NCBI GenBank assembly: GCA_964436315.1
Contig: CAYTCZ010000001.1
Span: forward strand, 8,741-72,740
Origin: an uncultured Gaiellales bacterium
GTDB lineage: Bacteria; Actinomycetota; Thermoleophilia; Gaiellales; Gaiellaceae
Length of the DNA stretch: 64,000 nt
Direction: 5' to 3'
Positions 25,809-62,211 of this stretch are shown here, one piece after another. The translations under genes were made by a program, and so were the position numbers. The number at the start of each line of letters is the position of its first letter. Positions within the stretch are counted from its first letter, which is position 1. A model generated the notes under the pieces. That model ran no database searches, had not been told where the DNA came from, and saw only the letters and a program-made list of their open reading frames with translations.

Positions 25809-27424
25809 TCAGCCCCTCCGTCCTGGGCGATGTTGATCTTCTGCGTCCGCGCCGAATCGGCCACCCCGCTGGTCAGCTGCGTGCGCGCCGAATCGGCCAC
25901 CCCGCTGGTCATCAGCTGCGTCACTCGGTCGAGCTCGTCCAGCCGTACCGACAAACTCATCAACGTGCCGTTGAAACGGTTGACGACCTCGGCGGTCGCT
26001 CCATCGAATACACTGAGCGTTTCCTGAAGGCTTTGCTCGGTGTTGGAGAGCTGCTGATTGAGCAGCGCCGAAAGGCTGTTGACCTTTTCGAGCGCGACAT
26101 CGAGTGCCTCGACGTTCTGCGACATTCCCTCCTGTAGTTCCATGCCGAGGCGCTGCGCCGACTCGCCGAACCGTTCCATCGTCGTCGGGAGCTCGTTGAC
26201 GGCCGAACGGATTCCCGCCTGCGCCTCTCGCAGTTCTCCGAGGCCACGGTTGAGATCGACCACCCCCGAATGAACCTGAAGCGCCGCTTCTCGAAGTCGA
26301 TCGCTCGTCTCGTCATGGCGTTCCGTATGCTCGCGCCAGGCGATCGCCAACTCGCGCTGGAGGACCGCGTTGCCGTCCAGTCGGTCTAGAAGCTCTTGCA
26401 GCCCCCGCTCGGTCTCCCGATGCCATTCGAGCGTCCTATCGAGGGCCACCCCGAGGTCGTCGAACTGTTGGCTCAGCTTTTCGTGAAACGACGAAGAGAA
26501 ACCCTCCATCATCGAGCCCAGCGCTTCGCGGTGAGCGTCTTGCGACGCCTCCCCGATCTTGGTGACCGCGTTCTGGACCCCCTCGAACGATGGCGTCAGC
26601 GCCGTCGCAATCGCCGCCGGGAGGTCGCTGACCAGGGTTCCCAGGTAGCCGCCCTGCTCCTCGGCCGCGACCACCATCTGCTGGGCCGCTTTCGAGATCT
26701 TCTTCAGGAGCTCGTCGTTGGACTGGTGTTTGAGCCGCGAAATGCTCCCCGCGAGTTCCGTCGCGACGGACTCGACCTCCGAGCGAACCAGGCGTCCCGC
26801 GACGAGGCTCGCCATCGACATGCAAATTCCGACGATCGACGAGTGAAACGCAACCGATACGCCAGCGAGCAGCGTGTTCATCCCCACCATCATCGCTTCG
26901 CTGCCAGACGTCGAGTCGAGCCCCCCGAGCCCTCCCACGAGTCCGATGAAGGTGAACAGAATGCCGAGCGCCGTGAAGAGCGGAGGTGCGAGGTCGATCA
27001 CCGCGCGCACGGTCATCGGTGCCGCCGCCATGATGTCGTCTACCCATATCTCGGCCGCGTCATCCCTCACTCGGCCCTGCTGAAAGATCCTCAGCTGAAG
27101 CGGAGTCGGAAGTAGGATCACGACGTGGGGGATGCCGCGGTCTCCGCCCGCGGAGAACGTCGATGGGTCGACGTCCTGCAGACGGACACGAGCCTCCTCC
27201 ACCCGCTCTACCAGGGTTCCCAGGCGCCACACCGCCACGACTGTGAGTAGCGTCCCGGCGAGCATCGCTCCCCAGAACACGACCTCCGGTGGAGTGACGA
27301 CTCCATCACCCGGTTCCAATGCCAGATAGGTCCCGGCGACGAAGATGAACGCCAACGCCGGGATCACTCCCCAGGCGCCTGGTCCTCTCAGTTTTTTGCT
27401 TCGGCTTTCTCCCTCTCGCGCCAT
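25805..27424 (-). CDS. zorA: Zorya ZorA, MotA/ExbB-like membrane protein with coiled-coil tail (~539 aa from the preferred start)
   Basis: TM segments WGVIPALAFIFVAGTYLAL, VVFWGAMLAGTLLTVVAVW, LAPPLFTALGILFTFIGLVGGLGGL and LLAGVSVAFHSSIVGICMSMASLVAG, then a ~250-aa helical tail. Preferred ATG 27424 (codon 67 of the track ORF) is preceded by AAGGGGG. The maximal ORF start is 27622. Confidence 0.8.
   Translation of the reverse strand: MAREGESRSKKLRGPGAWGVIPALAFIFVAGTYLALEPGDGVVTPPEVVFWGAMLAGTLLTVVAVWRLGTLVERVEEARVRLQDVDPSTFSAGGDRGIPHVVILLPTPLQLRIFQQGRVRDDAAEIWVDDIMAAAPMTVRAVIDLAPPLFTALGILFTFIGLVGGLGGLDSTSGSEAMMVGMNTLLAGVSVAFHSSIVGICMSMASLVAGRLVRSEVESVATELAGSISRLKHQSNDELLKKISKAAQQMVVAAEEQGGYLGTLVSDLPAAIATALTPSFEGVQNAVTKIGEASQDAHREALGSMMEGFSSSFHEKLSQQFDDLGVALDRTLEWHRETERGLQELLDRLDGNAVLQRELAIAWREHTERHDETSDRLREAALQVHSGVVDLNRGLGELREAQAGIRSAVNELPTTMERFGESAQRLGMELQEGMSQNVEALDVALEKVNSLSALLNQQLSNTEQSLQETLSVFDGATAEVVNRFNGTLMSLSVRLDELDRVTQLMTSGVADSARTQLTSGVADSARTQKINIAQDGGAE
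25841..25912 (-). repeat. 36-nt in-frame tandem duplication in the zorA tail (TSGVADSARTQ x2)
   Basis: Protein reads LMTSGVADSARTQLTSGVADSARTQK. The nucleotide units share a perfect ~28-nt core (CGCGCCGAATCGGCCACCCCGCTGGTCA on the + strand). Confidence 0.8.
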
Positions 27425-32047: not shown

Positions 32048-32185
32048 CTAGCGAGCCCTCTCTTCGCCACCCACTACCTTGACACAGGGAGCGGGGCGAG
32101 GCGAGCGAATTGGAGTCCCGCCGCCAGCCGTTCGGCCCGTTCGCCGGCTGCGCCGTGAGCAGACGCTTTCGGTGGCACGGCGTCT

Positions 32186-32257
32186 AGCCGGGCGGGACGC
32201 CCGCTCACCGAGGTCGGTGGCATGGCCTCGAGCCGGGCGGGGACGCCCGCTCACCGA
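32186..32257. repeat. Two copies of a ~26-nt GC hairpin unit (AGCCGGGCGGG(G)ACGCCCGCTCACCGA) in the gap upstream of ietA
   Basis: Copies at about 32186-32211 and 32231-32257. Each contains a CGGGCG-GGA-CGCCCG stem-loop. Located between the stop of the 231-aa ORF and the ietA start. Confidence 0.6.
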
Positions 32258-36349: not shown

Positions 36350-36577
36350 CTACAGTCGAGCCTTCTCGACGGCCTCGAGCCCCACACCGAGCGCCGAGGC
36401 TTCCTGGGCGACGAAGCCTTCGAGGTAGTCGCCGAAGCGGATGCCGAACTGGGGGTCGAGCTCGTTGTGCCACTGTTTGACCCAGGGAACGAGGTCGTGG
36501 ATGCCGGCGAGGACGAGGGTGAGGCGTTCGGGGTCGAAGCCGAACTCGTCGCGGGCCTGGTAGAAGAAGGTGGCGAG
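36350..36577. repeat. Direct repeat copy B (authentic pglX 3' end)
   Basis: Partner of 33648-33875. Confidence 0.8.
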
Positions 36578-39500
36578 GGCCTGGGCGCGCTGCTTGTGAT
36601 CGAGGCCCGCCCAGGTGACGAAGGTGTGGCCGTCGTGGTCGAGCGACGGGTAGCTGGTGAAGCGTTCCTTCGGGACGTCGAGCTTGCCGCGCAGGGTGTA
36701 GACCGTGCCGGACTGGAAGTCGCCCTTGGTGTACTTGGGGGGCTTGGGGATCTTGACCTTCTCGCCGGCGTCTTCGCGGCGCTGGAGGTCCCAGACCTTC
36801 TCCCAGGTGCGGCGCTTCTTGATGCCGCCCTTCTTGTATCGCTGGGCGGGGAGGAACGGGACGGACTCGCCGGCGACCAGGTCGGCTATGAGCTTGTCGA
36901 CCAGCACGTTGGGGTTGTGGGTGTAGCGTTCGGCGACCTGCATGAAGTCGGCATCTTCGCGGGCGCGGTCGGCGAGCTCGGCGAGGCGGCGCAGGCGGGG
37001 CTGGGGGTCGTCGCGGTCGCCGAGGTATGCCGGGGTTTCGAGGCGATCGAGGAGCCAGCCGCGCAGCGCGTCCTGCTCGCGGTCTTCCCAACTGTCGCGG
37101 TTCCAGCGGCGCTTGTATTCGGGCTGCTCGATCAGGCGGACGAAGCGGCGCTCGGCGATGAGGTCGATGCGGCGCTGGACGAGGTCGCGGTACCACGCCG
37201 GCCAGCGGTCGGGGATTTCGGTGATGGGGGTCGAGCCGTGGCGATCGAACCAACTGGTGGCGAGGTCGCCGGACTCGAGCTTGCGGGCCATCACGATCTC
37301 GAACGCGCGCTCGCCGAGCTTCACCTGGGGGACGTCGTCGAGGTCGTCGGCGAGCGGAGCCTCGCCGTCGTCGAGCAGGCCGTAGAGTTCGTAGCAGCGC
37401 CAGTCGAGCTCTTCCTGCAGGGCGACCATCTGGCGTTCGAGCGACTCGGCGTTATCCCGGGCGTCGTCGAGCGCCGCGGCGGTCGGCGTGCTGGCGTCGG
37501 CGAGCGATGCGGGCTGCAGCTCGCCGAGCCGTTGCGCGAGCCGGTCGAGCTTCGTCGCGAGCTGGAGCGGTCGCGTTTCGGTGAGGGGGAACTGTTTGAT
37601 TTTGGTGCCGTCGAACTCGTAAAAGTCTTCGAAGGCCTCGTCCCGCGTCCGAGCGCCCTTTGAATCAGCGCCATAGCCCTTGTTGAAGAAAACCTGCTTC
37701 ATCCAGAAGCACGCCGTCGAGCTGTTCAGGAGGCCCAGCAGTCCCAGGTGGTCGTCTTCCGTCGCGTCGGCGGGGAGTTTGATGACCGGTGCGGACTGTT
37801 TGAACACCTTGCCACCGCGGTCGAGGACGAAGTGGTTGTGGGTGGCGACGAAGGCGAACGTGATGGAGAGCGGGGTTCTGAGTCGATACTCGTAGTGCTC
37901 CAAGTGCACAAAATACGGTTCGCCGCGTTGTTCCAATGATTTGCCGAACACGGTCCGCCGCTGTAGCAATTCGCGATTTCGCCAGAAATAGGCAACGGGC
38001 ACTTCAGTAATACCGAGCGCGGCTCCTCCCATCTCTTCATAGGGGTACGGGGCGATTGTTCGCGGCACGATTTGATAGTCCCTCACATCCTGTCCTGTGA
38101 CGACCGGGACGGATAGCTTTGAAAGCCCTGCGCGCCGAGAACTCGCGGTATCGTGGAGCCATGCATCGTCTTCGCCGAAAACGGTTGTACGACCGATGTC
38201 TCCGCTCGTCTGCTCAAGGACGACGCCCTCGCCATCGAGGACCTGCTTCACCTCCAGCGCGCCACCACCACGAAGACTCCAAGGATGAGTCGACAGAAGT
38301 TCACCCTCCAGATCACTAACGGTCACGAAGTCGTTCTCGAAGCCGACCTCATCGGTGTGCTCGGAAATGGAGCGCCAGACTTTTCCCATCCGCGGATCGT
38401 CGGGTGTCTTGGGTTCGCCGCGAATCCCGAGGATGGCGCGTACCTCCGGGGAAGACGGCGCCTGGTTGCGGCCGAAAAGGATGACGGTGGGGGTGCCGTG
38501 CCCCGGGATGTAGGCGCCCGAGGTGTCGATGACGTGGGTGAGGTCGGTCTGCGGGATGACGCTCTCGATGAGCTTCGAGCCGAACTCGCGCTTCATGAAC
38601 GAGTTGGCGACGATCTGGCCGACGTAGCCGGCCTGGTCGTGCGGCCAGCGCTCGCCCGAGAACAGGTCGTCGCCCAGCCGCTCGCCGCCGGCGAGCTCGA
38701 AGAAGCGCTCGTAGAACGGGCAGACGAGGGCGTACTGGCGGTAGCAAGACTCGTAGAGGTCGCGGTAGGCGTCGCGGGCGGCCTTGTCCTTGGGGGTGAT
38801 GTAGGGCGGGTTGCCGACGACGGCGTGGTACTGCTGGCCCAAGACGTAGTCGATGAGGTCGTTGTCCTCGGTGACCCAGCGGTCCTGGTCGGTCAGCTTG
38901 AACTGGTTCAGCTCGAGCTGGGCGACGTTCTTCGTCGCGCTGGTCTCGAACCGGGGGAAGCGCTTGCCGTGAATCAGCGTATCGCCGACGGCGATGTGGA
39001 GCGGCAGGTCGGGGACGTCGTCGAGCTTGAGGTCGACACTGACCGCGGTCATCGCGGCGATGAGGAGGCGGAAGCGGGCGATGGCGACGGCGAAGGGGTT
39101 GAGGTCGACGCCGTGGGTTGCGTCGAGGGCCTCGCGGACGAGGTCGATGCGGGGGACGCCGGGGCGCGCGGCGAGCTTCTTCTGGAACAGCCGGCGGAAG
39201 CCGCCGAGGAGGAAGTGGCCCGAGCCGCAGGTGGGGTCGATGAAGCGGACGGTGTCGAGGCCGAAGGTCTCGATGGCGGGCTCGAGGGTGTAGTCGAGGA
39301 TGTAGTCTTCGACGAAGTCGGGGGTCTGGAGGAGGGCGAAGCGTTTCTTCGCGTGTTCCGAGAGCTCCTGGTAGAGATCGCCGAGGAAACGGGTGTCGCG
39401 CTGCGCGCGACGCTCTGCGCTCTGCGCTCTGCGCTCTGCGCTCTGATGGCCGGGACGGCCATCCACCGATTTCTCGTCCGCCGAATGATGGCCGGGACGG

Positions 39501-40027
39501 CCATCCACCGAAGAGGCGAACTCGCGCTTCAACCGACCGGTGTCGGGGTCGATTTCGCGCCAGAACTTGAGGATTGCGCGGCCGGCATCGGCGGACGGGC
39601 GGACGTTGTAGAGGGGGTTTCGTTTGGGGCCGAAGAGCGCCCCGGCGGGGAGCGTGGCGAAGTGGCGGAAGACGTGGAGGAGGTAGTCGGTCTCGGAGTC
39701 GGTGGGGTGCTTCTGGAAGTACTCGTCGGTGCGGTCGCGGGCGTCTTCGCCGGCGCGGTCGTCGCCGGCGATCCAGACGCCGTCGACTAAGACATTGTCC
39801 TCCAGAAAGCGGACGAAGACGCTGGTGAGGACCCAGGCGACGGCGACCTGCGTGAGGTAGTCTTCGAGCCACGCTTCGAGCTCGTCGGCGGTGCGGGACT
39901 TGTCGACGGCTTCCTGCCAGGCGGCGGTGAGGCCTTCGCGGACTTCGGCGTTGGTGTCGACCTGGCGATCGAGGTCTTCGACGAGATCGGTGACGAGCGA
40001 ACGGAGTTCGGAGATGTCGTACTTCAT
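36350..40027 (-). CDS. pglX: BREX N6-adenine DNA methyltransferase PglX (1,225 aa)
   Basis: True start is ATG 40027 (MKYDISELRSLVTDL...), codon 512 of the maximal track ORF. SAM motif I FIDPTCGSGHFLLG and motif IV VVGNPPYITPKDK. The upstream 511 codons are Pro/Ser/Ala shadow overlapping another gene. Confidence 0.9.
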   Translation of the reverse strand: MKYDISELRSLVTDLVEDLDRQVDTNAEVREGLTAAWQEAVDKSRTADELEAWLEDYLTQVAVAWVLTSVFVRFLEDNVLVDGVWIAGDDRAGEDARDRTDEYFQKHPTDSETDYLLHVFRHFATLPAGALFGPKRNPLYNVRPSADAGRAILKFWREIDPDTGRLKREFASSVDGRPGHHSADEKSVDGRPGHQSAERRAQSAERRAQRDTRFLGDLYQELSEHAKKRFALLQTPDFVEDYILDYTLEPAIETFGLDTVRFIDPTCGSGHFLLGGFRRLFQKKLAARPGVPRIDLVREALDATHGVDLNPFAVAIARFRLLIAAMTAVSVDLKLDDVPDLPLHIAVGDTLIHGKRFPRFETSATKNVAQLELNQFKLTDQDRWVTEDNDLIDYVLGQQYHAVVGNPPYITPKDKAARDAYRDLYESCYRQYALVCPFYERFFELAGGERLGDDLFSGERWPHDQAGYVGQIVANSFMKREFGSKLIESVIPQTDLTHVIDTSGAYIPGHGTPTVILFGRNQAPSSPEVRAILGIRGEPKTPDDPRMGKVWRSISEHTDEVGFENDFVTVSDLEGELLSTHPWSLRGGGALEVKQVLDGEGVVLEQTSGDIGRTTVFGEDDAWLHDTASSRRAGLSKLSVPVVTGQDVRDYQIVPRTIAPYPYEEMGGAALGITEVPVAYFWRNRELLQRRTVFGKSLEQRGEPYFVHLEHYEYRLRTPLSITFAFVATHNHFVLDRGGKVFKQSAPVIKLPADATEDDHLGLLGLLNSSTACFWMKQVFFNKGYGADSKGARTRDEAFEDFYEFDGTKIKQFPLTETRPLQLATKLDRLAQRLGELQPASLADASTPTAAALDDARDNAESLERQMVALQEELDWRCYELYGLLDDGEAPLADDLDDVPQVKLGERAFEIVMARKLESGDLATSWFDRHGSTPITEIPDRWPAWYRDLVQRRIDLIAERRFVRLIEQPEYKRRWNRDSWEDREQDALRGWLLDRLETPAYLGDRDDPQPRLRRLAELADRAREDADFMQVAERYTHNPNVLVDKLIADLVAGESVPFLPAQRYKKGGIKKRRTWEKVWDLQRREDAGEKVKIPKPPKYTKGDFQSGTVYTLRGKLDVPKERFTSYPSLDHDGHTFVTWAGLDHKQRAQALATFFYQARDEFGFDPERLTLVLAGIHDLVPWVKQWHNELDPQFGIRFGDYLEGFVAQEASALGVGLEAVEKARL
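39411..39445 (-). repeat. Five perfect tandem copies of a 7-nt unit (CAGAGCG on the coding strand) inside pglX
   Basis: The + strand reads CGCTCTG x5. It encodes QSAERRAQSAER (PglX codons 195-206), upstream of the methyltransferase motifs (about aa 263 and 406). Confidence 0.85.
39434..39511 (-). repeat. 42-nt in-frame duplication (SVDGRPGH...) in pglX; each copy contains the perfect hairpin ATGGCCG-GGA-CGGCCAT
   Basis: Protein reads SSVDGRPGHHSADEKSVDGRPGHQSAE, with copies starting at PglX codons 173 and 187. The palindrome was read directly on the + strand. Confidence 0.8.
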
Positions 40028-40088
40028 GTGTGCGTCCCCTGTGTGGCGAGAGGGGGAGGTATAGCACGCGGCGGGGGGAGGAGAGCAA

Positions 40089-40322
40089 GCCGCACGCTCG
40101 CGCGTGCGGTGACCGGCGCGCTGCGCGCGCACGCCGGCTGACGCCGGCAGAGAAAGGGTAGGGAGAGACTGCACGCCGCACGCTCGCGCGTGCGGAGACC
40201 GGCGCGCTGCGCGCGCACGCCGGCTGACGCCGGCAGGTGAAGGGTAGGGAGAGACTGCACGCCGCACGCTCGCGCGTGCGGAGACCGGCGCGCTGCGCGC
40301 GCACGCCGGCTGACGCCGGCAG
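40089..40322. repeat. Tandem 86-bp structured repeats (two full copies 40151-40236 and 40237-40322, plus a partial ~62-bp copy) in the pglX leader
   Basis: Unit: ...GGGTAGGGAGAGACTGCACGCCGCACGCTCGCGCGTGCGGAGACCGGCGCGCTGCGCGCGCACGCCGGCTGACGCCGGCAG. Each unit holds three GC palindromes (CCGCACG..CGTGCGG, GCGCGC..GCGCGC, GCCGGC-TGAC-GCCGGC). No unique spacers are present. Confidence 0.85.
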
Positions 40323-40343
40323 GGGCGGCGAGCGAGGGACGAT

Positions 40344-41639
40344 TCAGGGCAACATGACAAGGAGATCGCGGAGGAATGCTTGGAGGGGGCGGGGGTCGGG
40401 GGTCCCGGGACGAAGGGGGATGACGCCGACGGTTTCGGTGACGCCGAAGAGGCGGCAGGAGTGGGTGTCGAGGGGGGCGATGGCCCAGGCGCGGCGGGGG
40501 TGCTTGATGACGGGGACGCCGGCGATGTGGCGGGGCTCGGCGCGGACGAGGGTGCGGGCGTAGCGGCCTTTGGTTTCGAGGTGGTCGGGGGCGAGGGCGA
40601 GGGTGGGGTCGAGGACGATGGACTCGACGGAGTCGTGGGTGGTGACGTTGAGGACGAGGTCGGGGGTTTGCTCGGAGCGTTCGGTGGTGCGGAGTCCGCA
40701 GGGGTGGAGGTTGGGTCCGATGCGGGGTTCGATCCAGAGTTCGACTTCGGTGGAGCCGGAGCCCGATAGCTCGACGCGTCCGCCGAGGAAGACGGCCCAG
40801 ACGGCCTGGCTGTCGGAGTCGGGGGTCCAGCCGAGGTCGGCGAGGGCCGCGAGGAGCTGCAGTGCGCACCAGCGCTCGTAGAGGAACGGGAGGTCGGCGA
40901 TGTCGACCGGTGAGCTGAGCGTGCGGTCGAGGTGGCTCTCGAGCGACAGGGCGGGATCGAGCCAGTGGCGGACGAGGCGGCGCAGGCGCTGCCAGGTCGC
41001 GCCGCGTGGGAACGGTCGCGGGATTCGCTCGCGCGGGAAGACGGGGCCACCGGCGCGGAGCTCGATGACGCGGCGGGCGCGGTCGAGGCGTTCGGTGGCA
41101 GCGTCGAGGCGCTGTGCGGTCTCGTCGAGGCGCGCGAGCTCGTCGTCGGACCAGGACGACTGCAGGCCCTGGCGGACGCTCCGGAGCTCGTCGAGCTGGG
41201 TGGCGAAGCGCTCGCGCAGTTCCTGGAGTTCGGAGGCGACGCGCTCGACGATGAAGACGAGCCAGCGGAGGGCGTCGGGGGAGGTGGTCTCGACGACAGC
41301 GGGGCGCAGCCAGTAGCGGGGAGTCCAGTCGCCGTCGTCGGAGCGTTCGAAGGCCCAGGGGGCGCGGGAGAGGTGTGCGCGTGCGGGGCGTTGTGTCCGC
41401 TCCATCCGTTCGGTGGAGAGGACGGACTCCATCGACTCGGCGAGGAGCTTCGGGGTGGATCGGGCGAGGACGTCGGCGGCGTGCAGGGCGCCGGCGATCG
41501 AGGTGAGGGGCGCGGGTGCGAAGTCACGGAGGGCGCGGCTGACGCCCTCTTCGCGGCCACGTTCGAGCAGGAAAGCCGCCTGTCGACGCAGGTCGAGGAC
41601 CATCGCGGCGACCATCTCGTCGTAGGTGACCGCGGTCAT
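40344..41639 (-). CDS. McrC-like / DUF2357-type PD-(D/E)XK nuclease partner of the upstream AAA_5 ATPase (431 aa)
   Basis: Start ATG 41639 (MTAVTYDEM...) overlaps the upstream stop (ATGA). C-terminal TPDLVLNV ... IVLDPT ... LETKGRY is compatible with a D...E-x-K site. The rest of the track ORF (41640-43277) is out-of-frame shadow. Confidence 0.55.
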   Translation of the reverse strand: MTAVTYDEMVAAMVLDLRRQAAFLLERGREEGVSRALRDFAPAPLTSIAGALHAADVLARSTPKLLAESMESVLSTERMERTQRPARAHLSRAPWAFERSDDGDWTPRYWLRPAVVETTSPDALRWLVFIVERVASELQELRERFATQLDELRSVRQGLQSSWSDDELARLDETAQRLDAATERLDRARRVIELRAGGPVFPRERIPRPFPRGATWQRLRRLVRHWLDPALSLESHLDRTLSSPVDIADLPFLYERWCALQLLAALADLGWTPDSDSQAVWAVFLGGRVELSGSGSTEVELWIEPRIGPNLHPCGLRTTERSEQTPDLVLNVTTHDSVESIVLDPTLALAPDHLETKGRYARTLVRAEPRHIAGVPVIKHPRRAWAIAPLDTHSCRLFGVTETVGVIPLRPGTPDPRPLQAFLRDLLVMLP

Positions 41640-43468
41640 GCCTGGACCACGTCGAAGCCGGACTCGAGCATCGCGCGCCATCGTTCGAAGCGCTCGGCGC
41701 AGAGAGGAAGCCGTGCTCCCCAGTCGTCGGCCCACGTCTCGGAGAGGTCGGCGATCACCTCGTGGTCCCCGGGCTCGCCGACGAAGAGTCGGACCTTGCT
41801 GAGGACCTGGGTGACGAGGACGAGGTCGATGACGTCCCAGCGGGTCGCGCCGAGCTCTTCGAGGCCACCGAAGGCGTCCTGGATGGCGAGGGCGGTGCGC
41901 ATCGAGAAGACGGCGCCGCGGGATTCGAGGCGGTAGTGGAGGTCTTTGATCGCCTGCAGCTCGTCGGGCTCGAGGTCGACGTCGAGGCGTTCGATCATCG
42001 CCTCGGGGGAGAGTTCGACCTGGATGAGGGTGACGCGGTCGAGGACGCGGGGGGAGAGGTCGCGGGTGGTGTGGTCGGAGTTGATGGTGCCGACGATGCG
42101 AAGCGCGGGCGAGAGTGTGACGGCGGCGCGTTCGTCCTCGCTGTTCCAGTGCTCGGGGGCGGTACCGCCGAGCTCGATTCGGCGGCCGTCGAGGTCGTCG
42201 GGCGCGTACTGCGAGCGGACGAGGAGGTCGGAGAGCCAGTATTCGGGCGGGCTGAGGTTGAACTCTTCGAAGACGACGACGAAGGGGTCGCGGACGCCTT
42301 CGTTCCATGCACGTTCCGCCCGTTTGAGGAAGTCGGTGAAGGGGGTGGGGCGGAAGGTGCCGGTCATCGGGTTGGTGTAGCCGAGCAGGTCTTCGCGACC
42401 GCGCCAGGTGGAGGGGACGGCCTCGACGTGGCGGCGGTCTTCGTCGGTGACGCTGAGCGCGAGGCGCGACTTGCCGATGCCGGGGGCTCCGCGCAAGAGG
42501 ATCATCGCGTTGGGGCGGCGGCCGGCGAGCCAGAGGGCTCGGACGACGTCCTCGCCGTACTGCGCGCCGATGCGGCCGATCTGGCCGAGCTCGAAGAGGG
42601 GTGGGAAGGCGGGCGCGGGTTCCTCGGGGACGGCGACGGGCTCCGCCACTGGCGCGTCGGCGGGGGTCTCGGGCTCGGCGGCGACCTCGGGCTGGGGCGG
42701 CTCGGCGGGTTCGTCGGACTTCGGCGGCGCCTCGCTGGCCGGCGCGGCACGCTTCACCGGCTTGAAGTTCTGGAGCTGGCTGAATGGGGAGTCGAACCCG
42801 GCGCTCTCCTCGACCCACCTTCGCCCCTTCCGATTGCGGCGCTTGTCGTTGAGGGTGGCAGCGTTCTCGAGCGGTCCTTGGAGTCGCTTCAGGCTCTTGC
42901 GTCGTGGATCGTTGCCGATTCCGTTGCGGACGAACGCCTCGTCGAGGTGGTCGAGCATCCGGGCGACGGCGGTCGAATCGAAGTGTCGCATGTAGGGGCG
43001 TCCGACGCTGTCGTAACGCTGCGGCTCGACGCGCAGGTCGGACAGATGGATCGACCAGTCCTTTCGCGGATGGACCTTGTAGATGCTCTTGTGCCCGATC
43101 GAGATCTCTTCGACCTGTTTGACGACGTAGAGTCCGGCGAGGGTGTGACGCCCGTTTCCGACGGATCCGGCGGGCTCTTTGAACTGGTGGGTGAAGAGGA
43201 AGAGCACCTGGTCGTCGAGCGCGCGGGCATCCTCGTCGAGGAGCCACTTGGCCCCCTTTTCGTCGATGATGAACCACGGCTTTTGCGCATCGAAGAGGTA
43301 GACCTGATAACAGCGGTCGTCGCCGCGGTCACAGTAATCGGCCCGGAACTGCCTCTTGGCGCCGCAGTCCCAGTTGCACGGGTCGTTGCAGACGGTCCCG
43401 TTCCATCCCGCGCGGTGCGCGTTGACCTGGCAACCCCAGGCTCCTCCAGTTTCTGGCCAGAACGACAT
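41636..43468 (-). CDS. McrB-like AAA_5 ATPase/GTPase with Cys-rich N-terminal domain and Pro/Glu/Ala linker (610 aa)
   Basis: Walker A RGAPGIGKS, Walker B FVVVFEEFN, VGTINSDHTTRDLSPRVLDR. N-terminus WGCQVNAHRAGWNGTVCNDPCNWDCGAKRQFRADYCDRGDDRCY. GGAGAGGGGA precedes ATG 43468. Confidence 0.75.
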   Translation of the reverse strand: MSFWPETGGAWGCQVNAHRAGWNGTVCNDPCNWDCGAKRQFRADYCDRGDDRCYQVYLFDAQKPWFIIDEKGAKWLLDEDARALDDQVLFLFTHQFKEPAGSVGNGRHTLAGLYVVKQVEEISIGHKSIYKVHPRKDWSIHLSDLRVEPQRYDSVGRPYMRHFDSTAVARMLDHLDEAFVRNGIGNDPRRKSLKRLQGPLENAATLNDKRRNRKGRRWVEESAGFDSPFSQLQNFKPVKRAAPASEAPPKSDEPAEPPQPEVAAEPETPADAPVAEPVAVPEEPAPAFPPLFELGQIGRIGAQYGEDVVRALWLAGRRPNAMILLRGAPGIGKSRLALSVTDEDRRHVEAVPSTWRGREDLLGYTNPMTGTFRPTPFTDFLKRAERAWNEGVRDPFVVVFEEFNLSPPEYWLSDLLVRSQYAPDDLDGRRIELGGTAPEHWNSEDERAAVTLSPALRIVGTINSDHTTRDLSPRVLDRVTLIQVELSPEAMIERLDVDLEPDELQAIKDLHYRLESRGAVFSMRTALAIQDAFGGLEELGATRWDVIDLVLVTQVLSKVRLFVGEPGDHEVIADLSETWADDWGARLPLCAERFERWRAMLESGFDVVQA

Positions 43469-43711: not shown

Positions 43712-44022
43712 CTCGCTCGCCGAGCCGGACGCTCGCTGGCCCTGGCTCCTTCGTCGCCAGGACCGCTCGCTCGGAGCCTTCCAATGGTCGAAAATTGGGT
43801 CGCAGGCAGGGCGTGTGAGACCGGTGCTGACCGCATACGCAGACGCCAGGTCGGACGGGTACTGCTCGCTCTACGTCACGACGTTGTACGTGTGCCAGCG
43901 GCGAGAGTCGACGGGGGGTGAACCCCGGTGGGTCCCGTGCACGGGGGTCCGGGAGCGCCCTGCTTGTGGGTCGTGGGGTCGCAACGTAGCATGGACCGCA
44001 AACCTATCTACGAGGGGAGACG

Positions 44023-44973
44023 ATGAACGAGTACGAGATTTGGACGGTGCGGGAACGTGACATCGACTTGATGTTGATGCGCGCGCTGGCAGAGAATCGC
44101 GATTTCAGGAGCTGGTTTTTCGATCGGACCGGGATGCCCTCCGACGCGGTGGACGGAAAGGTGAGTGTCCGGCATTCGGTCACTCACGGAAACGGGGAGA
44201 TTGACGTGGTCGTGGAAGTCGAACGAACCGAGAGCGAGGATAAGACGAAGCAGGTCATCCTGATCGAGGACAAAATCAACGCGCCGCTTCAACCCGACCA
44301 AGACAATCGCTACCGGGAGCATGCAGAGGGATTGCGCAACGAAAACACGTCATGCCGAACCGTGCTCTTCGCCCCGGACGACTACCAGCAACCCTGCGAC
44401 TTCGACTTTCGTGTGTCGTACCAGGACACGAAGCGATGGTTCGACGAGCATCGCCCAGGGAGATACGAGAGCGTGGTCTTGGGCTGTGCGATCGACCCGA
44501 ACCGCAGATACATCGCGAAGATCGACGACCAGAACACGGTCTTCTGGCGCGAGTACTATGAGGCAACGCTTTCCTTTCGCGACCGTCGGGGCATCGACCT
44601 CGCCATGCCGGAGCCAGGTGAAAAGCCAGCGGGCTCGACCTCCATTCAGTTTGGTCCTCCGCTGCCAGCGGGCGTGTCGCTTTGGCACAAGTTCACCAAC
44701 GGAATCGTCGATCTGGAGGTGCGAGGTGCAGGGGCACGACGGGCCGAACTGGAACGTCGGCTCGAGCCGTACCGACCCGCGGGATGGGAGGTGGTCGAGG
44801 CGGGAAAGTCTGCCGCAGTCCGCCGAAACGTGGAGCGGTTGAATCCGACGGAGATTGCCAGCAAGCAGAGCGAGCAGATTCTGCGCGCTCATGAAGCCGT
44901 TGCGGATTTCATCTGGTGGCTCCAGATGCCTGGTGTCCGGGCCGTCTTGGCCGACTTTGGCCAGACGCGTTAG
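44023..44973 (+). CDS. PD-(D/E)XK nuclease-superfamily protein (316 aa)
   Basis: ERDIDLMLMRALAEN ... GEIDVVVEVE ... VILIEDKINAPL (D ... E-x-K). GAGGGGAG precedes ATG 44023. Confidence 0.55.
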   Translation: MNEYEIWTVRERDIDLMLMRALAENRDFRSWFFDRTGMPSDAVDGKVSVRHSVTHGNGEIDVVVEVERTESEDKTKQVILIEDKINAPLQPDQDNRYREHAEGLRNENTSCRTVLFAPDDYQQPCDFDFRVSYQDTKRWFDEHRPGRYESVVLGCAIDPNRRYIAKIDDQNTVFWREYYEATLSFRDRRGIDLAMPEPGEKPAGSTSIQFGPPLPAGVSLWHKFTNGIVDLEVRGAGARRAELERRLEPYRPAGWEVVEAGKSAAVRRNVERLNPTEIASKQSEQILRAHEAVADFIWWLQMPGVRAVLADFGQTR

Positions 44974-45092
44974 TCCACGCCTGCGACGAAGGCCCCAAGG
45001 GATGACGTCGCTGGCATCGGGCATCCATCGCGCACTCTCAGCTTTCCCGCTGCCCCTTCGAGGAAGGGAGCGTTACGCTACCGCCTCTCACG

Positions 45093-47927
45093 ATGGAGTT
45101 CATGATGGTTGAGAAGGAAGGTCTGACGATTCCCGAGAAGCGCGTGGGGGAGCTTCGCGAATGCGTCGCGGAGTTCCTCGAGGCGTATGATGTCCGAAAG
45201 CACGTGGAAGAGACCCGCGCCAGTCAAGAACAAGGGCGGGCGAACTTCGACAAAGTGCTGCAACACGGAAAGATGGACGAGGAGGGGCAACGGCTGGTGT
45301 TCAGTGGGCTGATGCCGCACGGCAATACTCCGTTTGTTCGGGAGGAGGGACGCTGGATATCGATCGCGCCCTCGGTGACGCGTGAGATTCGGGTCTGGTT
45401 CGAAGGCGCGAAATGGGTGCAGCCCCATCAGTGGCCAGACGTCGGCATTGCGATCGTGGACTTTCTGCAGACCGCGCTCGACGGCGACTTGGAGGCAGCA
45501 TGCCAGAGATTCTCGGAGATCCCCGTCTGGGGGTTCCAGGGCGGCATCGTGTCGCCGATTCTCAACGCGCTCGATCCTGGGCGATTCTCGATCGTGAACA
45601 AGAAGCCGGTCGACGCGCTCAATCACTTCGCGGGCGCGGGAGCGCATACGGGGATTCACGAGTACCCGCGCGTGAATCGGCAGGTCTTCGCATTCTGCGG
45701 CATCGTCGCCGAAATGGCGGCGGGGCACTCTGCTGTCGAGGGACTCACCCCGTGGGAGATCGGGGACACGTTTTGCCACTGGGTCGTGTCGGTGAAGAAG
45801 CAGACGCAGACGAAGAAGAAGCTGCGGTTCTTCAAGATCGCCCCGGGGCGCGAGGCCAATCTGTGGGAGGAGTGCCGTACCGGCGGTTGCATTGCCGTCG
45901 CATGGGACGATCTCGGGGATGTCGGCGGGCTCTCGAGAGACGAATTCAACGCTCGAATGGACCTCGTTCGGCAGTCCGATCCCTCGATCACCAAGCAGGC
46001 GATGTGGCAGGTTTGGACGATGTCGCGGCTGAAGAAGGGCGAGCACGTACTCGCGAACCGCGGCACCACAGCTGTGCTAGGATTTGGAGAAGTGGTCGGC
46101 GACTACTACTACGATGACGATGCCGAGACCCATAAGCACCGTGTTCCGATTCGTTGGTTCGACACGCAGCCTCGAAGGGTCAACCAGGGAGGCTGGCGAA
46201 AGACTGTCATCCGTCTGAGCGAGGAGGATTGGGAACAGCTCCTCGCCGCTCCGAAACTGCCTCCGAAGCCAGATCCGAAACCCTCACCTCCAGATCCTGA
46301 GAGAGTGACGGACGCGGCGCCATCTATCGCGACGAACCTCATTCTCTACGGTCCTCCGGGGACCGGAAAGACCTACGCGACTGCTCGACGTGCGGTGGAA
46401 CTGTGCCTCGATCCGGAAACGACCCTCGAACGGGCGGTGGTGGTCGAAGAGCTACGCCAACTGAGTGCCGACGGGTTCGTCGAGTTCGTCACCTTTCATC
46501 AGTCGTATGGCTACGAGGAGTTCGTGGAAGGTATCCGGCCGGTGATGGACGGGCAGAGCGGCGAACTCACCTACAAAGTCGAAGATGGACTTTTCAAGCG
46601 AGTCGCGCTGCGGGCTGCGGCGGAAGGTGTGGTCGACGAGACATCGGAGCTACCGTTCGACTCGCTCTGGTCGCAGCTACTCGACGAGATCGAGGCCGCC
46701 GCCAGTGGGTCCGAAGAGGCTCACGCTACGGCGGCGAACGGAAACACGTACGCGCTCTCGCTCACCTCGCAGGGAAACATTCGAGGTCATCGGGTAGATA
46801 CTGAAGATGACGGCAAGCCTGTGGTCACCGAGGCGTATATGACGGCGCTGAAAGTGTATGCGGAGGCTCTATGGCGACGTCGGGACGACCTCGGGACGGA
46901 GCCGGGCGATTATTCGTACGGATTGATGACGCGCATCATCGCAGAGGAGATGGGTACGCAAGGTGGTCACCACGGCGCCCTACACTGGCTTGTGCATCTG
47001 CGTCTGCGTGATCTCGCCGCTCTCCACCAGAATCTTCCCCGCGAGTTTGGCCCCTCCGAACGTCGGAAGGTGTTGAACGAGATTCTACGGACCGGAAAGA
47101 CGTCCTCCCTCAGCTATGATGGAGCCAAGCAGTACGTGCTGGTGATCGACGAGATCAATCGCGGGAACATGAGCAAGATTCTGGGTGAGCTGATCACCCT
47201 GCTGGAGCCATCGAAACGACTGACGCAATGCGACCAGTTGGTCGTCCAGCTTCCGTACTCCAAGTCGAAATTCGCAGTACCGCCGAATCTGCATGTGGTC
47301 GGCACGATGAACACCGCGGATCGGTCCATTGCGCTCATGGACGTGGCGTTGAGGCGCAGGTTCGAGTTCGAGGAGATGATGCCCGACGTGGCCGTGCTGG
47401 TGGACGCGCTGCAACGCGACGTCGCGGAGAGTGTGCATGGCGGAAAGGAGGACTACGTCAACCTGGTTGCGGCACTTTTTGAGTGCATCAACGCCCGCAT
47501 TCGCTTTCTGTACGACGAGGACCATCAACTCGGGCACTCGATGTTAATGACAGCCACATCGTACCTGGAACTTCGAAAGGCAGTGGTGACCACGGTCATT
47601 CCCATGCTGCAGGAGTATTTCTATGGCTCGTGGGATCGGGTTTGTTCGGCCCTCGGATGTCCATACGTCGACGGCGCGCCTGCGAGGAAGGAGTTAGTTC
47701 ACGAGGGTGCGTATCGTGCCCCGTTCATCGAAGCGGTCCCCGTATCTGAACGCGACCTTCTAGGTTTCGACCACGTTTCGTATGAGGACCAGATGGAGTA
47801 TCGACTCAGCTCTGGTCTTGGCGGGGCACAAAGCGCCGAAACCCCGCGACGGGTTCGTCAGATGTGCATCGATGCCCTCTCCGGAGAGCACGCGAAACGG
47901 TTCGAAGCCCGGGCGTACACGCGGTGA
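45093..47927 (+). CDS. mcrB: McrB-family AAA+ GTPase with extended N-terminal (PUA/EVE-like reader) region (944 aa)
   Basis: LILYGPPGTGKTY, VLVIDEINRGNMSKILGELITLLE, VVGTMNTADRSIALMDVALRRRFEFEEM. N-terminal FFKIAPGREANLWEECRTGGCIAVAWDDLGD ... HRVPIRWFD resembles reader domains fused to McrB homologues. Confidence 0.85.
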   Translation: MEFMMVEKEGLTIPEKRVGELRECVAEFLEAYDVRKHVEETRASQEQGRANFDKVLQHGKMDEEGQRLVFSGLMPHGNTPFVREEGRWISIAPSVTREIRVWFEGAKWVQPHQWPDVGIAIVDFLQTALDGDLEAACQRFSEIPVWGFQGGIVSPILNALDPGRFSIVNKKPVDALNHFAGAGAHTGIHEYPRVNRQVFAFCGIVAEMAAGHSAVEGLTPWEIGDTFCHWVVSVKKQTQTKKKLRFFKIAPGREANLWEECRTGGCIAVAWDDLGDVGGLSRDEFNARMDLVRQSDPSITKQAMWQVWTMSRLKKGEHVLANRGTTAVLGFGEVVGDYYYDDDAETHKHRVPIRWFDTQPRRVNQGGWRKTVIRLSEEDWEQLLAAPKLPPKPDPKPSPPDPERVTDAAPSIATNLILYGPPGTGKTYATARRAVELCLDPETTLERAVVVEELRQLSADGFVEFVTFHQSYGYEEFVEGIRPVMDGQSGELTYKVEDGLFKRVALRAAAEGVVDETSELPFDSLWSQLLDEIEAAASGSEEAHATAANGNTYALSLTSQGNIRGHRVDTEDDGKPVVTEAYMTALKVYAEALWRRRDDLGTEPGDYSYGLMTRIIAEEMGTQGGHHGALHWLVHLRLRDLAALHQNLPREFGPSERRKVLNEILRTGKTSSLSYDGAKQYVLVIDEINRGNMSKILGELITLLEPSKRLTQCDQLVVQLPYSKSKFAVPPNLHVVGTMNTADRSIALMDVALRRRFEFEEMMPDVAVLVDALQRDVAESVHGGKEDYVNLVAALFECINARIRFLYDEDHQLGHSMLMTATSYLELRKAVVTTVIPMLQEYFYGSWDRVCSALGCPYVDGAPARKELVHEGAYRAPFIEAVPVSERDLLGFDHVSYEDQMEYRLSSGLGGAQSAETPRRVRQMCIDALSGEHAKRFEARAYTR

Positions 47928-49318
47928 AGCGGATCTGGGTCACCGAGCACGAACGTGTGTACAAAGGCGCACAGGGTACAAAATCGGAGAGGATCGGTGG
48001 GCGAGTTGTCTTGTCGCGCCGACACTTCGAGCGCCTGCAGCGATTCGACGAGCGGGCTGCGGATACCGAAGGACGTCAAATTTTCGAATGGCGCTCGCGC
48101 TACGCAAGGGCAACCCAATGGGTCGGCGTGCTGCAGGTCGGAGAGTTGTCCATCGAGGTTCTGCCGAAGATCGAACGTGGCATTTCCGACGGGGCGTACG
48201 GTCGCGAGGCATTTGCGCGGAAGAATCTCCTCTACATGCTCTCGCTCACGGGAGAACTTCCGCTCCGAGACCGCGACATCGCCAGCCAGGCGGCCTACGA
48301 GGCGCCAATTCTCGAGACTTTGATCCGCATTTTCGCGGAGCGACTACTGAAAGAGCTGCTCCGTGGGTTGGACAGCGAGTACGTCGACCGAGAGCGCAAC
48401 ATCGGAACGGTTCGGGGGAAGCTGCTCTTCTCCGAGGACATTCGTCACAACGTAGGGCGTCGCGACCGGCTGTTCTGTAAGTTCGACGAGTTTCTCGCCG
48501 ACACCGTCATGAACCGCGCCTTTCGAGCATGCTGCCGGCGGCTCCTGTTGACTTCGAGCGGGACGAGCACCCGCGAGAAGCTCTCCCGTTGCATTGCTGT
48601 TCTCGACGACGTGGCCGACGTGGAGATTTCACCCGAAGCGCTAGAGCGTGTCGTCCTTCATCGCCAGAACGAGCGATTCCAAGAGCTGTTCAACTTCTGC
48701 AAGCTCATCCTCTCGAACCAATCTCCTGCTGGAACCAGCGGTTCCACGTCCGCGTTCTCGCTATTTTTCGACATGAACGTGCTCTTCGAATCCTACGTGG
48801 CCGCGATGCTGTCACGGTACGTCGCGCCGATTCGTTCGAGCCCTACGCGGGTGTATCCCCAAAGCCGAGGCAACCTGCGGCACCTCGTCTTCTCTCCGAG
48901 AGGCGAGGTCACGGACGGCTACGACCCCGAACGCGACGGCCACAAGAGCTATCCGCTGAAAGCGGACATTCTCGTTCACGATGAAACGGGATGGACGGTG
49001 CTCGACACGAAGTGGAAGAGGCTGTCCACGAAGAAGGCGCGTCAGGGCGTCGGACCGGCCGACCTCCTGCAACTGTATGCGTATGCAACTCGCTACGAAG
49101 CCTCCTCGAACATCCTTCTGTATCCCGCGGTCCCCGATGCGACACCACAGGACTTCCATCTCCCGCTTGGGCCGAATGGCTTGCAGAGCATCCAGGTTCG
49201 ATTCATCGACATGAACCGGGATCTCCTGGTCGAACGGAAGCTGATCGCGAAGGAACTCGCGGCGTTGTTGGCGTCTGGGTCGGGCGATGAGCACTCGTCG
49301 CTCCCCATGTCTCCATGA
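47924..49318 (+). CDS. mcrC: McrC-family PD-(D/E)XK nuclease subunit (~464 aa)
   Basis: GTG 47924 overlaps the mcrB stop (GTGA). ADILVHDETGWTVLDTKWKRL catalytic region and LLQLYAYATRY motif. Confidence 0.8.
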   Translation: MKRIWVTEHERVYKGAQGTKSERIGGRVVLSRRHFERLQRFDERAADTEGRQIFEWRSRYARATQWVGVLQVGELSIEVLPKIERGISDGAYGREAFARKNLLYMLSLTGELPLRDRDIASQAAYEAPILETLIRIFAERLLKELLRGLDSEYVDRERNIGTVRGKLLFSEDIRHNVGRRDRLFCKFDEFLADTVMNRAFRACCRRLLLTSSGTSTREKLSRCIAVLDDVADVEISPEALERVVLHRQNERFQELFNFCKLILSNQSPAGTSGSTSAFSLFFDMNVLFESYVAAMLSRYVAPIRSSPTRVYPQSRGNLRHLVFSPRGEVTDGYDPERDGHKSYPLKADILVHDETGWTVLDTKWKRLSTKKARQGVGPADLLQLYAYATRYEASSNILLYPAVPDATPQDFHLPLGPNGLQSIQVRFIDMNRDLLVERKLIAKELAALLASGSGDEHSSLPMSP

Positions 49319-52363: not shown

Positions 52364-54495
52364 TCGATCCCCGTCGCAGCGCTCAAGTCGAGGAAGTGGA
52401 AGGGACCGATGGTGGCGAGCTCTTCGCGACCGTTGCCGAAGAAGCGAGCTTCGGCGGCGCGCTGGAGCAGGTCAGGGGGGAGGAGCGAGTTGAACTTGAG
52501 CTGCTCGAGCAGGGGGTGGTCGGGGTCGATCATGGGGCCGATGCGCCGGATGGCGTCGAGGTCGAGGGCGGTCTCCATCTGGCCGAGCATCTTGTCGGTC
52601 TTCACGGTCACGGCGAGACCGTCGGACGAGGTCTTCTCGCCGGTGAGCTGGTCGAGCATGGCGGCGAGGTAGCGGTTGGCGTAGTCACCGGCGAAGGTCC
52701 AGAGGCGCATCTTGCCGTCCTCGCGGAGGACGATGGTGCCGTGCGGCTCGACGAAGCCGTGCTCCATGCGGATCCCGGTGAGCTCGTCGCCGGCGCGTTT
52801 GGACCAGTGGGGGGCGCCGAGCTCGCTTCCGAGGAAGACCTGGCGGTGGGCTTCGGCGAGAGCGCGGGACATCGGGTGACCGGTGCCGACCCAGCGGGAT
52901 TTGCCCGTCATCTTCAAGGGCTCGACGTAGGCGCGGCGGCGCTTCCAGTCGATGTCTTTGACGAACCACGTGCGGCCGGCGAGCAGGATGACGAGTGGGC
53001 TGTCGTCCTTGTCCTTTTTGTCGAAGAAGGTGCTCTGGTGGACGTCGCCGATCTCGCGGGTGGTATGGAAGACCTTGAAGATCGGGGGGGTCGTGAAGAC
53101 GGTGACGAGCTCCATGAAGTGGCGATAGCCGAAGTCGGCTTCGCCCTCGGTGCCCATCCCCATCCGGACGCCGTCGGTGAAGAGGAAGTCGTGCTCCATC
53201 AGGGAGCGGAAGACCTCGGTGACAACGTCTTCGGATTCGCCGGCGAGCAGGGCGAAGCGGAGCGCTGCGTCGCGGAAGCTCGGGACGACCTCGCCGGGGC
53301 ATTCCAGCGAGCGGGCGAGCATCTGCTGGGCGAGGATGTGGTAGGGGTGCGCGGGGGGGATGGCGGGTTCGACGTAGCCGCGCTTCCACAGTTCGAGTAT
53401 CGCGGCGCCGCGGGCGAGTCCCTGGCGCTCGGTGGCGAGCATCAGCATGTTGGGAGTCGTGCCGGGGCGGCGGCCGGTGCGTCCCATTCGCTGCAGGAAC
53501 GAGGCGACGGAGAACGGGGCGTCGATCTGAATGACGCGGTCGAGGTCACCGATGTCGATGCCGAGCTCGAGGGCGGAGGTCGAGACGATGACGCCAGGCT
53601 GGCCCTCGGAGAAGGTCCGCTCGGTTTGCCGGCGCTCGGCCGCGCTGAGCGAGCCGTGGATCAGGTGGGTGCGGACGCCGCGGTCCCGGAGGAGACGCGT
53701 CAGCTTCTCGCTGAGGATTCGGCTGTCGCAGAACACCAGACGACGCTCGCCGCGATGAAGCTGCGAGATGACGTGGGCCGCGTTCGAGAGGTTGGCGACC
53801 CAGTCGAGGGTGACGTCGGGTTCGGTCGCGGTCGGCCGTGGAGGATCGACGGTCGTGCGGGCGTGCTGCGAGCCTCGGGAGAGCCAGTCGACGATCTCGT
53901 CTTTGTTGCCGACGGTGGCGGAGAGCCCGATCCGTTGTATGTCGCGGCCCGACCACTGCGCGAGTCGGTTGAGGACACCGAGCAGGTGCCAGCCTCGGTC
54001 GTCGTCGGCGAAGGCGTGGACCTCGTCGATGACGACGGCGCGCAGGTTCCGGAACATCTTCTGTGCGCTGGTGGTGCGCGAGATGAGCATCCCTTCGAGC
54101 GACTCGGGGGTGGTCAGCAGGACGGTCGGCGGCTGGTCGCGCATGCGCTTCTTGTCGGTCTGGGCGATGTCGCCGTGCCAGACACCGACTTCGTGTCCGA
54201 TGAGGCGGAAGAGGTTCTCGAGGCGTTCGTACTGGTTGTTGAGGAGCGCCTTGAGCGGGCTGACGTAGATGATGGCGAGCGGCTCCCAAACCTCTTCGAT
54301 GACCCGGGTCATCAAAGGGAAGAACGCGGCCTCGGTCTTACCGCCGGCGGTCGGCGCGAGGACGACGGCGTTGTCGCCCTCGAGGATGGGACCGATGGTC
54401 ATCTCCTGGACCGGCCGCAGCCCCGCGGACCATCCGAGGTTGTTGACGATGAGCCGCCGGACGTCGGGGTGGAGTCGTTCGAACTCAGAGCTCAT
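52360..54495 (-). CDS. brxHI: BREX Lhr-like DEAD/DEAH helicase BrxHI (711 aa)
   Basis: VLAPTAGGKTEAAF, VVIDEVHAF, VSTSALELGIDIGDLD, QRMGRTGRR. The start overlaps the brxD stop by 11 nt. Confidence 0.8.
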   Translation of the reverse strand: MSSEFERLHPDVRRLIVNNLGWSAGLRPVQEMTIGPILEGDNAVVLAPTAGGKTEAAFFPLMTRVIEEVWEPLAIIYVSPLKALLNNQYERLENLFRLIGHEVGVWHGDIAQTDKKRMRDQPPTVLLTTPESLEGMLISRTTSAQKMFRNLRAVVIDEVHAFADDDRGWHLLGVLNRLAQWSGRDIQRIGLSATVGNKDEIVDWLSRGSQHARTTVDPPRPTATEPDVTLDWVANLSNAAHVISQLHRGERRLVFCDSRILSEKLTRLLRDRGVRTHLIHGSLSAAERRQTERTFSEGQPGVIVSTSALELGIDIGDLDRVIQIDAPFSVASFLQRMGRTGRRPGTTPNMLMLATERQGLARGAAILELWKRGYVEPAIPPAHPYHILAQQMLARSLECPGEVVPSFRDAALRFALLAGESEDVVTEVFRSLMEHDFLFTDGVRMGMGTEGEADFGYRHFMELVTVFTTPPIFKVFHTTREIGDVHQSTFFDKKDKDDSPLVILLAGRTWFVKDIDWKRRRAYVEPLKMTGKSRWVGTGHPMSRALAEAHRQVFLGSELGAPHWSKRAGDELTGIRMEHGFVEPHGTIVLREDGKMRLWTFAGDYANRYLAAMLDQLTGEKTSSDGLAVTVKTDKMLGQMETALDLDAIRRIGPMIDPDHPLLEQLKFNSLLPPDLLQRAAEARFFGNGREELATIGPFHFLDLSAATGIE

Positions 54496-55840: not shown

Positions 55841-55852
55841 GGGAGTTCCTCG

Positions 55853-62157: not shown

Positions 62158-62211
62158 GACCCCTGTTTTAGAGGTTGACCGGCAATCGGGTCAACGCCGG
62201 GGCCTTCGATT

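Follow-up and report, generated by a model that had tools for sequence, protein, structure and literature searches.

A perfect heptanucleotide tract in the BREX-2 pglX gene of an uncultured Gaiellales bacterium, a candidate slipped-strand ON/OFF site

Phase variation of a phage defence methyltransferase has been described in the Pgl system of Streptomyces coelicolor, in which, according to PMC4365076 (citing Sumby and Smith 2003), a G tract inside pglX contracts from G8 to G7, with expansion in one strain, and the system varies at a rate of 1e-2 to 1e-4. PglX is also toxic without PglZ (PMC4365076). A heptanucleotide example is neuO, the O-acetyltransferase gene of phage CUS-3 in Escherichia coli K1, whose coding repeat of 5'-AAGACTC is ON if the unit count is divisible by three; its tracts have 3-53 units, 20 being the commonest number, and vary across 64 genomes and within cultures (PMC13001214). 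Other methyltransferases switched by simple sequence repeats (SSRs) are Haemophilus influenzae hsdM, with a pentanucleotide repeat, and the phase-variable modA ('phasevarion') (PMC2651432, PMC4525171), and pglX genes of BREX-1 (bacteriophage exclusion) systems undergo programmed inversions in Lacticaseibacillus rhamnosus and Brevibacterium casei (PMC9881135). No link between pglX and a repeat with a unit longer than a homopolymer was found in the literature searched. Here we describe such a repeat, five perfect copies of CAGAGCG, in the pglX gene of a BREX-2 system from an uncultured Gaiellales bacterium (assembly GCA_964436315.1, contig CAYTCZ010000001.1, positions 8,741 to 72,740). This whole stretch of 64,000 nt is called the window, and coordinates refer to it unless another locus is named. 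As a slipped-strand on/off site the tract is plausible but unproven, and the sequenced allele is in the ON state. It had been proposed as such in an earlier note on this DNA, which took the Streptomyces G tract as its precedent, and PMC4365076 does describe that precedent.

The tract occupies positions 39411-39445 on the minus strand (codons 195-206 of pglX) and reads on the plus strand as cgctctg repeated five times, with no mismatch. Tandem Repeats Finder (TRF) reported period 7, 5.0 copies, 100% matches and a score of 70, and the tract was the sole perfect SSR when the whole window was scanned for units of 2-12 nt with at least 3 copies and at least 15 nt in length. The window has a base composition of 64.3% G+C, and its longest perfect run with a period of 4-9 measures 35 nt, compared with 16-22 nt in 100 order-3 Markov simulations. 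The heptamer repeat is real and far outside chance. SSRs are generally avoided by coding regions (PMC3315296), and screens of H. influenzae treat at least three heptamer units as a candidate (PMC2651432), a threshold exceeded by the 5.0 perfect units of this candidate slippage tract. It shares with contingency loci a unit length (7 nt) that is not divisible by three and a position inside an open reading frame (ORF) at which a frameshift would abolish function.

The gene that contains the tract (36350-40027, minus strand; ATG at 40027 and stop codon at 36350-36352) is intact and encodes a BREX-2 adenine-specific DNA methyltransferase of 1225 aa. The protein matched the NCBIfam equivalog NF033451 (BREX-2 PglX) over aa 6-1221 with 1505.6 bits against a cut-off of 400, and the PADLOC PglX model PDLC02529 with E=0, while its Pfam matches were MmeI_Mtase, Eco57I and the C-terminal DUF7008. 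Motifs of the gamma-class N6-adenine methyltransferases are present. The S-adenosylmethionine-binding motif I, DPTCGSGHF (aa 264-272; 39212-39238, minus strand), and the catalytic motif IV, NPPY (aa 406-409; 38801-38812, minus strand), are both located downstream of the tract and in invariant alignment columns. A sequence comparison of PglX with solved structures gave no match, and the best matches in a fold comparison of its AlphaFold model (aa 1-676) were BREX-1 BrxX/PglX structures.

The effect of repeat number was computed from pglX genes rebuilt in silico with 0-11 heptamer units. The tract runs from codon 195, entered in phase 0, into codon 206, and the gene is in frame with 2, 5, 8 or 11 units, the sequenced allele of five units being the intact, ON state. 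With 4, 7 or 10 units translation stops after 323, 330 or 337 aa, respectively, and with 3, 6 or 9 units after 554, 561 or 568 aa. At these counts everything from codon ~206 onwards is misread, and the product therefore lacks motif I, NPPY and the C-terminal domains. Three units encode the heptad QSAERRA, and a change of three units adds or removes one heptad in the loop that contains the tract.

These results agree with the earlier note in several respects. The five copies of CAGAGCG at this position inside pglX were recovered from the sequence, by TRF and by the repeat scan, and the assignment to a BREX pglX was sharpened to BREX-2 by NF033451, PADLOC and the partner genes. The rebuilt genes reproduced the predicted frameshift near codon ~200 upon gain or loss of one or two units, as well as the in-frame change of three units with its QSAERRA periodicity, and the two landmarks that the note had placed downstream of the tract are found there, with motif I expected at about aa 263.

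In the mechanism that we propose, replication slippage would add or remove one or two units and so move the frame at codons 195-206. Four units would yield the 323-aa product and six units the 561-aa product, and such truncated proteins, devoid of motif I, NPPY and all that lies beyond, would leave BREX-2 methylation and defence OFF until a further slip regained the frame and the ON state. We infer that slippage occurs at a rate well above that of ordinary mutation, and that loss of PglX would disable this BREX-2 system. As far as can be read from sequence, the anatomy agrees throughout with a slipped-strand ON/OFF site. We give an even chance to a reversible ON/OFF frameshift hot spot whose rate is far higher than the background; that selection has made the tract a contingency locus which phase-varies at high frequency appears rather doubtful.

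The origin of the repeat can be traced to the DNA. Its codons are rare in the genes of the window, AGA representing 2.8% of Arg and GCA 10% of Ala codons, and the probability of the observed codon choice given the peptide is ~8e-7 according to codon usage. The periodicity therefore derives from the DNA and not from the protein, and these values indicate that the tract is a microsatellite expanded at the DNA level. Two decayed units, TCGCGCG and CAGCGCG (39397-39410, minus strand), are found directly 3' of the tract in gene orientation; their translation is RAQR, and in the closest homologue (L001) the codons aligned to them specify RGQR. The counterpart of the longer 3' flank, CGT CGC GCG CAG CGC GAC, in the same homologue encodes RGQRVD. 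The alignment of this flank to an orthologue, together with the decayed units, suggests that the tract grew locally by slippage, and one-unit steps from two to five units would then have crossed out-of-frame states.

Relative to the closest orthologue, pglX carries a 32-codon insertion, V174-E205 (39413-39508, minus strand), in the loop directly before the conserved DTRFLGDLYQ, a site at which most orthologues have no insertion. The loop is 13 aa long and without the QSAERRA element in 184 of 205 homologues, and ~10 others have unrelated inserts of 20-70 aa, of low complexity or palindromic. Among 120 full-length PglX homologues the site is one of ~4 recurrent insertion hot spots, the others being at ~aa 891, 1004 and 1088. 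The predicted local distance difference test (pLDDT) score of the AlphaFold model is 39-58 over aa 171-210 and below 50 over 175-195, compared with ~89 or more in the N-terminal flank and ~77 or more in the C-terminal flank; the loop, which joins the N-terminal helical domain to the methyltransferase core, is thus predicted to be disordered and length-tolerant. Loop inserts in the homologous proteins P0027, P0096, P0033, P0038, P0091 and P0005 and at the loci L064 and L069 resemble translated, in-frame palindromic DNA of the repetitive extragenic palindromic (REP) kind, with peptides such as HETHEK...FRVFGVFRG and KDEGGRMKDE...HPSSF, and those of L064 and L069 fold as long, strong DNA hairpins.

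Other repeats are found close to the heptamers. A 26-nt direct repeat, encoding SVDGRPGH, is present in two identical, in-frame copies located 42 nt (14 codons) apart on the minus strand: the first in gene order is at 39486-39511 and the second at 39444-39469, the last two bases of which (39444-39445) overlap the first heptamer unit. Each copy contains the palindrome GATGGCCG-TCC-CGGCCATC, and the 126-nt tract region is hairpin-rich, folding far better than shuffled controls (z = -4.2). Recombination between the two copies would remove 14 codons in frame. A dispersed REP or miniature inverted-repeat transposable element was considered for the palindrome and rejected as far as checked, since it occurs just twice in the window and is absent from viral contigs. 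Upstream of the gene, an 86-bp tandem repeat at 40085-40342 in three copies (100, 94 and 80% identity; TRF 2.8) takes up the greater part of the 316 nt that separate the stop of a PD-(D/E)xK gene (40344) from the ATG of pglX (40027). Each 86-bp unit has an 8-bp-stem hairpin, CCGCACGC-GCGA-GCGTGCGG, and the copy number could have an effect on pglX expression. Neither the surroundings of the tract nor these upstream repeats showed an Rfam family (one sub-threshold match), a sigma-70-like promoter or an intrinsic terminator. A switch of the inversion or shufflon type was discarded, as no long inverted repeats or recombinase genes were detected near pglX.

The comparison with orthologues comprised 80 orthologous pglX loci (730 kb). 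In a Nitrospinota metagenome-assembled genome (MAG; L046, CAVPRW010000023.1; 3500-3535) a tandem duplication of 8 bp, which leaves GACGAGAC present twice, shifts the pglX frame in the same loop as the tract of the window; removal of one GACGAGAC copy restores FTDETWNTRF and the conserved FTDETWNTRFLGDLYQ. The gene of a Gemmataceae MAG (L052, OY969623.1, ~4125) is interrupted by an in-frame TGA at a conserved Arg position (AYR..Y.SCH), which represents either a pseudogene or a sequencing error. Non-triplet SSRs were also found in a few other pglX genes that are intact: (CGCGA)5 at codon 794 in Amycolatopsis sp. A133 (L073 5381-5405, NZ_JAVHJU010000059.1), G9 at codon 385 in a Burkholderiaceae MAG (L014 4153-4161), C8 at codon 602 in Micromonospora sp. 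CPCC 205739 (L045 4804-4811), and the 8-mer (ACGCCAAG)3.1 at codon 880 in a Thermoguttaceae MAG (L057 5638-5662), two of these SSR-bearing orthologues being from cultured isolates. The G7 and C7 runs that recur at ~aa 783 and ~aa 1095 encode conserved Gly and Pro-Pro residues, so that the protein accounts for them. Outside the coding sequence, a G20 homopolymer is located 1.2 kb downstream of pglX in a Spirochaetia MAG (L040, OZ251573.1; 7808-7827), and precedes by ~25 nt the start codon (ATG) of an ORF on the minus strand (6704-7783). This homopolymer may be an SSR of a promoter or 5' untranslated region, its length being uncertain if the assembly is from long reads.

Family-wide enrichment of SSRs in pglX was not supported by these loci (p = 0.17-0.67). 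The numbers of SSRs inside and outside pglX were 3 v 5, 3 v 2 and 3 v 1 at lengths of at least 18, 20 and 24 nt, with binomial p values of 0.67, 0.30 and 0.17, respectively. Such enrichment would lend support to a contingency locus but is not strictly required to define one. At best, SSR switching is sporadic in the BREX-2 PglX family, and no conserved trait.

Length polymorphism of the tract would be the key evidence for phase variation, and close relatives of this pglX that might show it were searched for in several collections. The best non-self match of the full-length PglX had 59% identity, the N-terminal 330 aa retrieved nothing above 50% identity and no near-identical ON or OFF fragments, and an exact protein look-up returned no record of this PglX. 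The best PglX match in the GTDB species genomes had 53% identity, and the junction pattern CCCGGCCATCAGAGCGCAGAGCG gave one unrelated two-unit chance match in the JGI metagenome contigs.

A switch at the heptamer tract is favoured by a perfect repeat that is unique in the window, precedes motif I and NPPY and owes its periodicity to the DNA, by its hairpin-rich surroundings, by a full-length PglX with intact catalytic motifs and its partner genes present, and by a loop that tolerates length change and in which the Nitrospinota orthologue is frameshifted. The non-triplet SSRs of a few other intact orthologues and the precedents of S. coelicolor pglX and neuO also speak for it. Several observations weigh against it. 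The tract has five units only, the indel variability of SSRs climbs steeply with length (PMC3315296), and well-studied switches usually have longer tracts. There is no second SSR in the 64-kb window, SSR density inside pglX is not above that of the flanks in the 80 loci, and 78 of the 80 orthologous genes are intact. Neither ON nor OFF fragments nearly identical to this gene were found among 5.8 billion proteins, the JGI contigs and the GTDB genomes, the nearest match being the one at 59%. Furthermore, the loop takes unrelated palindromic or low-complexity inserts in ~5% of homologues, which makes a neutral origin sufficient.

Such a neutral by-product is the alternative that survives best, and we consider it a serious, if tentative, possibility, nearly as likely as the switch. 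It holds that repeat-rich DNA, made up of the two palindrome-bearing 26-nt repeats and a short microsatellite, gathered in a permissive surface loop, that five units are too short for relevant slippage and were never selected as a switch, and that pglX is effectively constitutive. The site is predicted to be disordered and is one of the ~4 hot spots of the family, and the unrelated inserts of ~10 homologues, several of them hairpin-forming, show what it can accommodate; the lack of SSR enrichment in orthologues, the low unit number and the intact gene in the sole sequence available are also as expected from a neutral tract. However, a perfect non-triplet repeat of 35 nt is very rare: the window has no other, and a single perfect SSR reaches 35 nt in the 730 kb of orthologous loci, its unit being an in-frame 9-mer. 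The perfect units next to decayed ones point to recent slippage, and the gene belongs to the class best known for SSR switching, pglX included (PMC4365076).

A broader version of the switch would extend it to other lineages, with the loop directly before DTRFLGDLYQ as a place where hairpin and repeat DNA repeatedly lands and grows and serves them as a built-in frameshift toggle, and the 86-bp repeats as an additional layer. The 5 x 7-nt tract described here and the 8-bp duplication of the Nitrospinota orthologue would be examples of it, and together with the upstream repeats would allow uncultured bacteria to control a potentially toxic methyltransferase by mutation at several levels. We regard this version as improbable.

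A role at the protein level appears very unlikely. In this case the QSAERRA-QSAERRA heptads would form a helical linker selected for PglX activity or partner binding, the DNA repeat being secondary, in parallel to NeuO, the activity of which is tuned by repeat number and is reported to rise with it (PMC13001214). The AlphaFold model does place a helix at aa 195-208, and the second heptad, although partly encoded by non-repeat codons (CGT CGC GCG), still reads ERRA. The helix is nevertheless of low confidence (pLDDT 48-58), the 13-aa loop of 184/205 homologues does without the element, and the rare codons and DNA periodicity (~8e-7) argue that the DNA repeat came first.

An error of assembly or sequencing in the tract or its unit count is very unlikely: the contig is apparently metagenomic and a single source (one 77-kb contig, with a protein cluster of one member) and repeats are prone to mis-assembly, but 35 nt is shorter than typical reads, all 1225 codons read in frame and the protein matches the family model over its full length, and a miscount by one or two units is unlikely because it would break that frame.

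The window is a defence island, which also carries IetAS and Zorya-like genes; no housekeeping genes were recognisable in it, its content being defence genes and unassigned ORFs. All five partners of pglX in the BREX-2 system are present on the minus strand at 52363-63999, with coordinates that represent open frames without stop codon rather than true starts: pglW (62215 to beyond 63999, cut by the window end), pglY (58486-62190), pglZ (within 55856-59020), brxD (54488-55852) and brxHI (52363-54543). The gene order is non-canonical, since pglW abuts pglY and pglX is located ~12 kb downstream of brxHI, instead of the pglW-pglX-pglY arrangement. Between brxHI and pglX there is a gene for an SNF2/DrmD-like helicase (49415-52471), followed by plus-strand genes that include one for an McrBC-family protein (43990-49315) and by an McrBC-like pair (40344-43468). 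The pair is composed of an AAA_5-like gene (41636-43468) and a PD-(D/E)xK gene (40344-41639); an ATGA combines the stop codon of one with the start codon of the other. TRF also detected two longer tandem duplications, one of 36 bp x 2.0 (97% matches) at 25841-25911, in the 3' end of a ZorA-like gene, and one of 45 bp x 2.0 (90% matches) at 32169-32257, just past the ietA start. The sole tRNA called by ARAGORN, a 94-nt tRNA-Ser(cga) at 59152-59245 (minus strand), is inside pglY and probably a false positive.

Should the tract switch, BREX-2 pglX would have a second known SSR switch that differs in mechanism from the first, and on/off bet-hedging by BREX would not be peculiar to Streptomyces, having arisen independently through different repeat types. 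Such bet-hedging could limit autoimmunity or PglX toxicity, or admit useful foreign DNA. It would also follow that an intact assembled pglX may not equal active defence in every cell, and metagenomic read pile-ups at tracts of this kind could reveal the defence state of a population. If it does not switch, the locus would still illustrate clearly that repeat DNA can build up in permissive loops of large defence enzymes.

Among the described systems, the BREX-1 inversions share with the switch proposed here a heritable and reversible variation of PglX within a population. There, however, specificity segments are shuffled by a recombinase, so that the enzyme acquires another target motif and is not turned on or off, whereas the window gene is adjoined by neither a recombinase nor inverted pglX fragments. 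In the hsdM and modA genes, non-triplet intragenic repeats toggle defence or epigenetic methyltransferases, but these genes encode Type I/III enzymes of host-adapted pathogens with many contingency loci, in contrast to the single SSR in 64 kb of 64% G+C DNA found here. The neuO gene resembles the tract in its architecture, with a heptanucleotide SSR in the 5' coding part, one ON class out of three and a 7-aa heptad for every three units, although the protein and its function are unrelated and neuO tracts are usually much longer. The S. coelicolor Pgl system resembles the proposed switch in gene and outcome: its PglX belongs to the same BREX-2 family (~43-45% identity to that of the window), and a length change of an intragenic SSR frameshifts the methyltransferase and toggles defence. 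It differs in having a homopolymer instead of a heptamer, and in that its switching has been shown experimentally, while that proposed here is a prediction from sequence anatomy. The Streptomyces tract is also elsewhere in the gene, a G7 of a Streptomyces orthologue, which may be the homologous tract, corresponding to ~aa 783 of the PglX described here. If real, a switch at the CAGAGCG tract would be only moderately surprising to specialists and would join the G tract of Streptomyces pglX and the heptamer of E. coli neuO.

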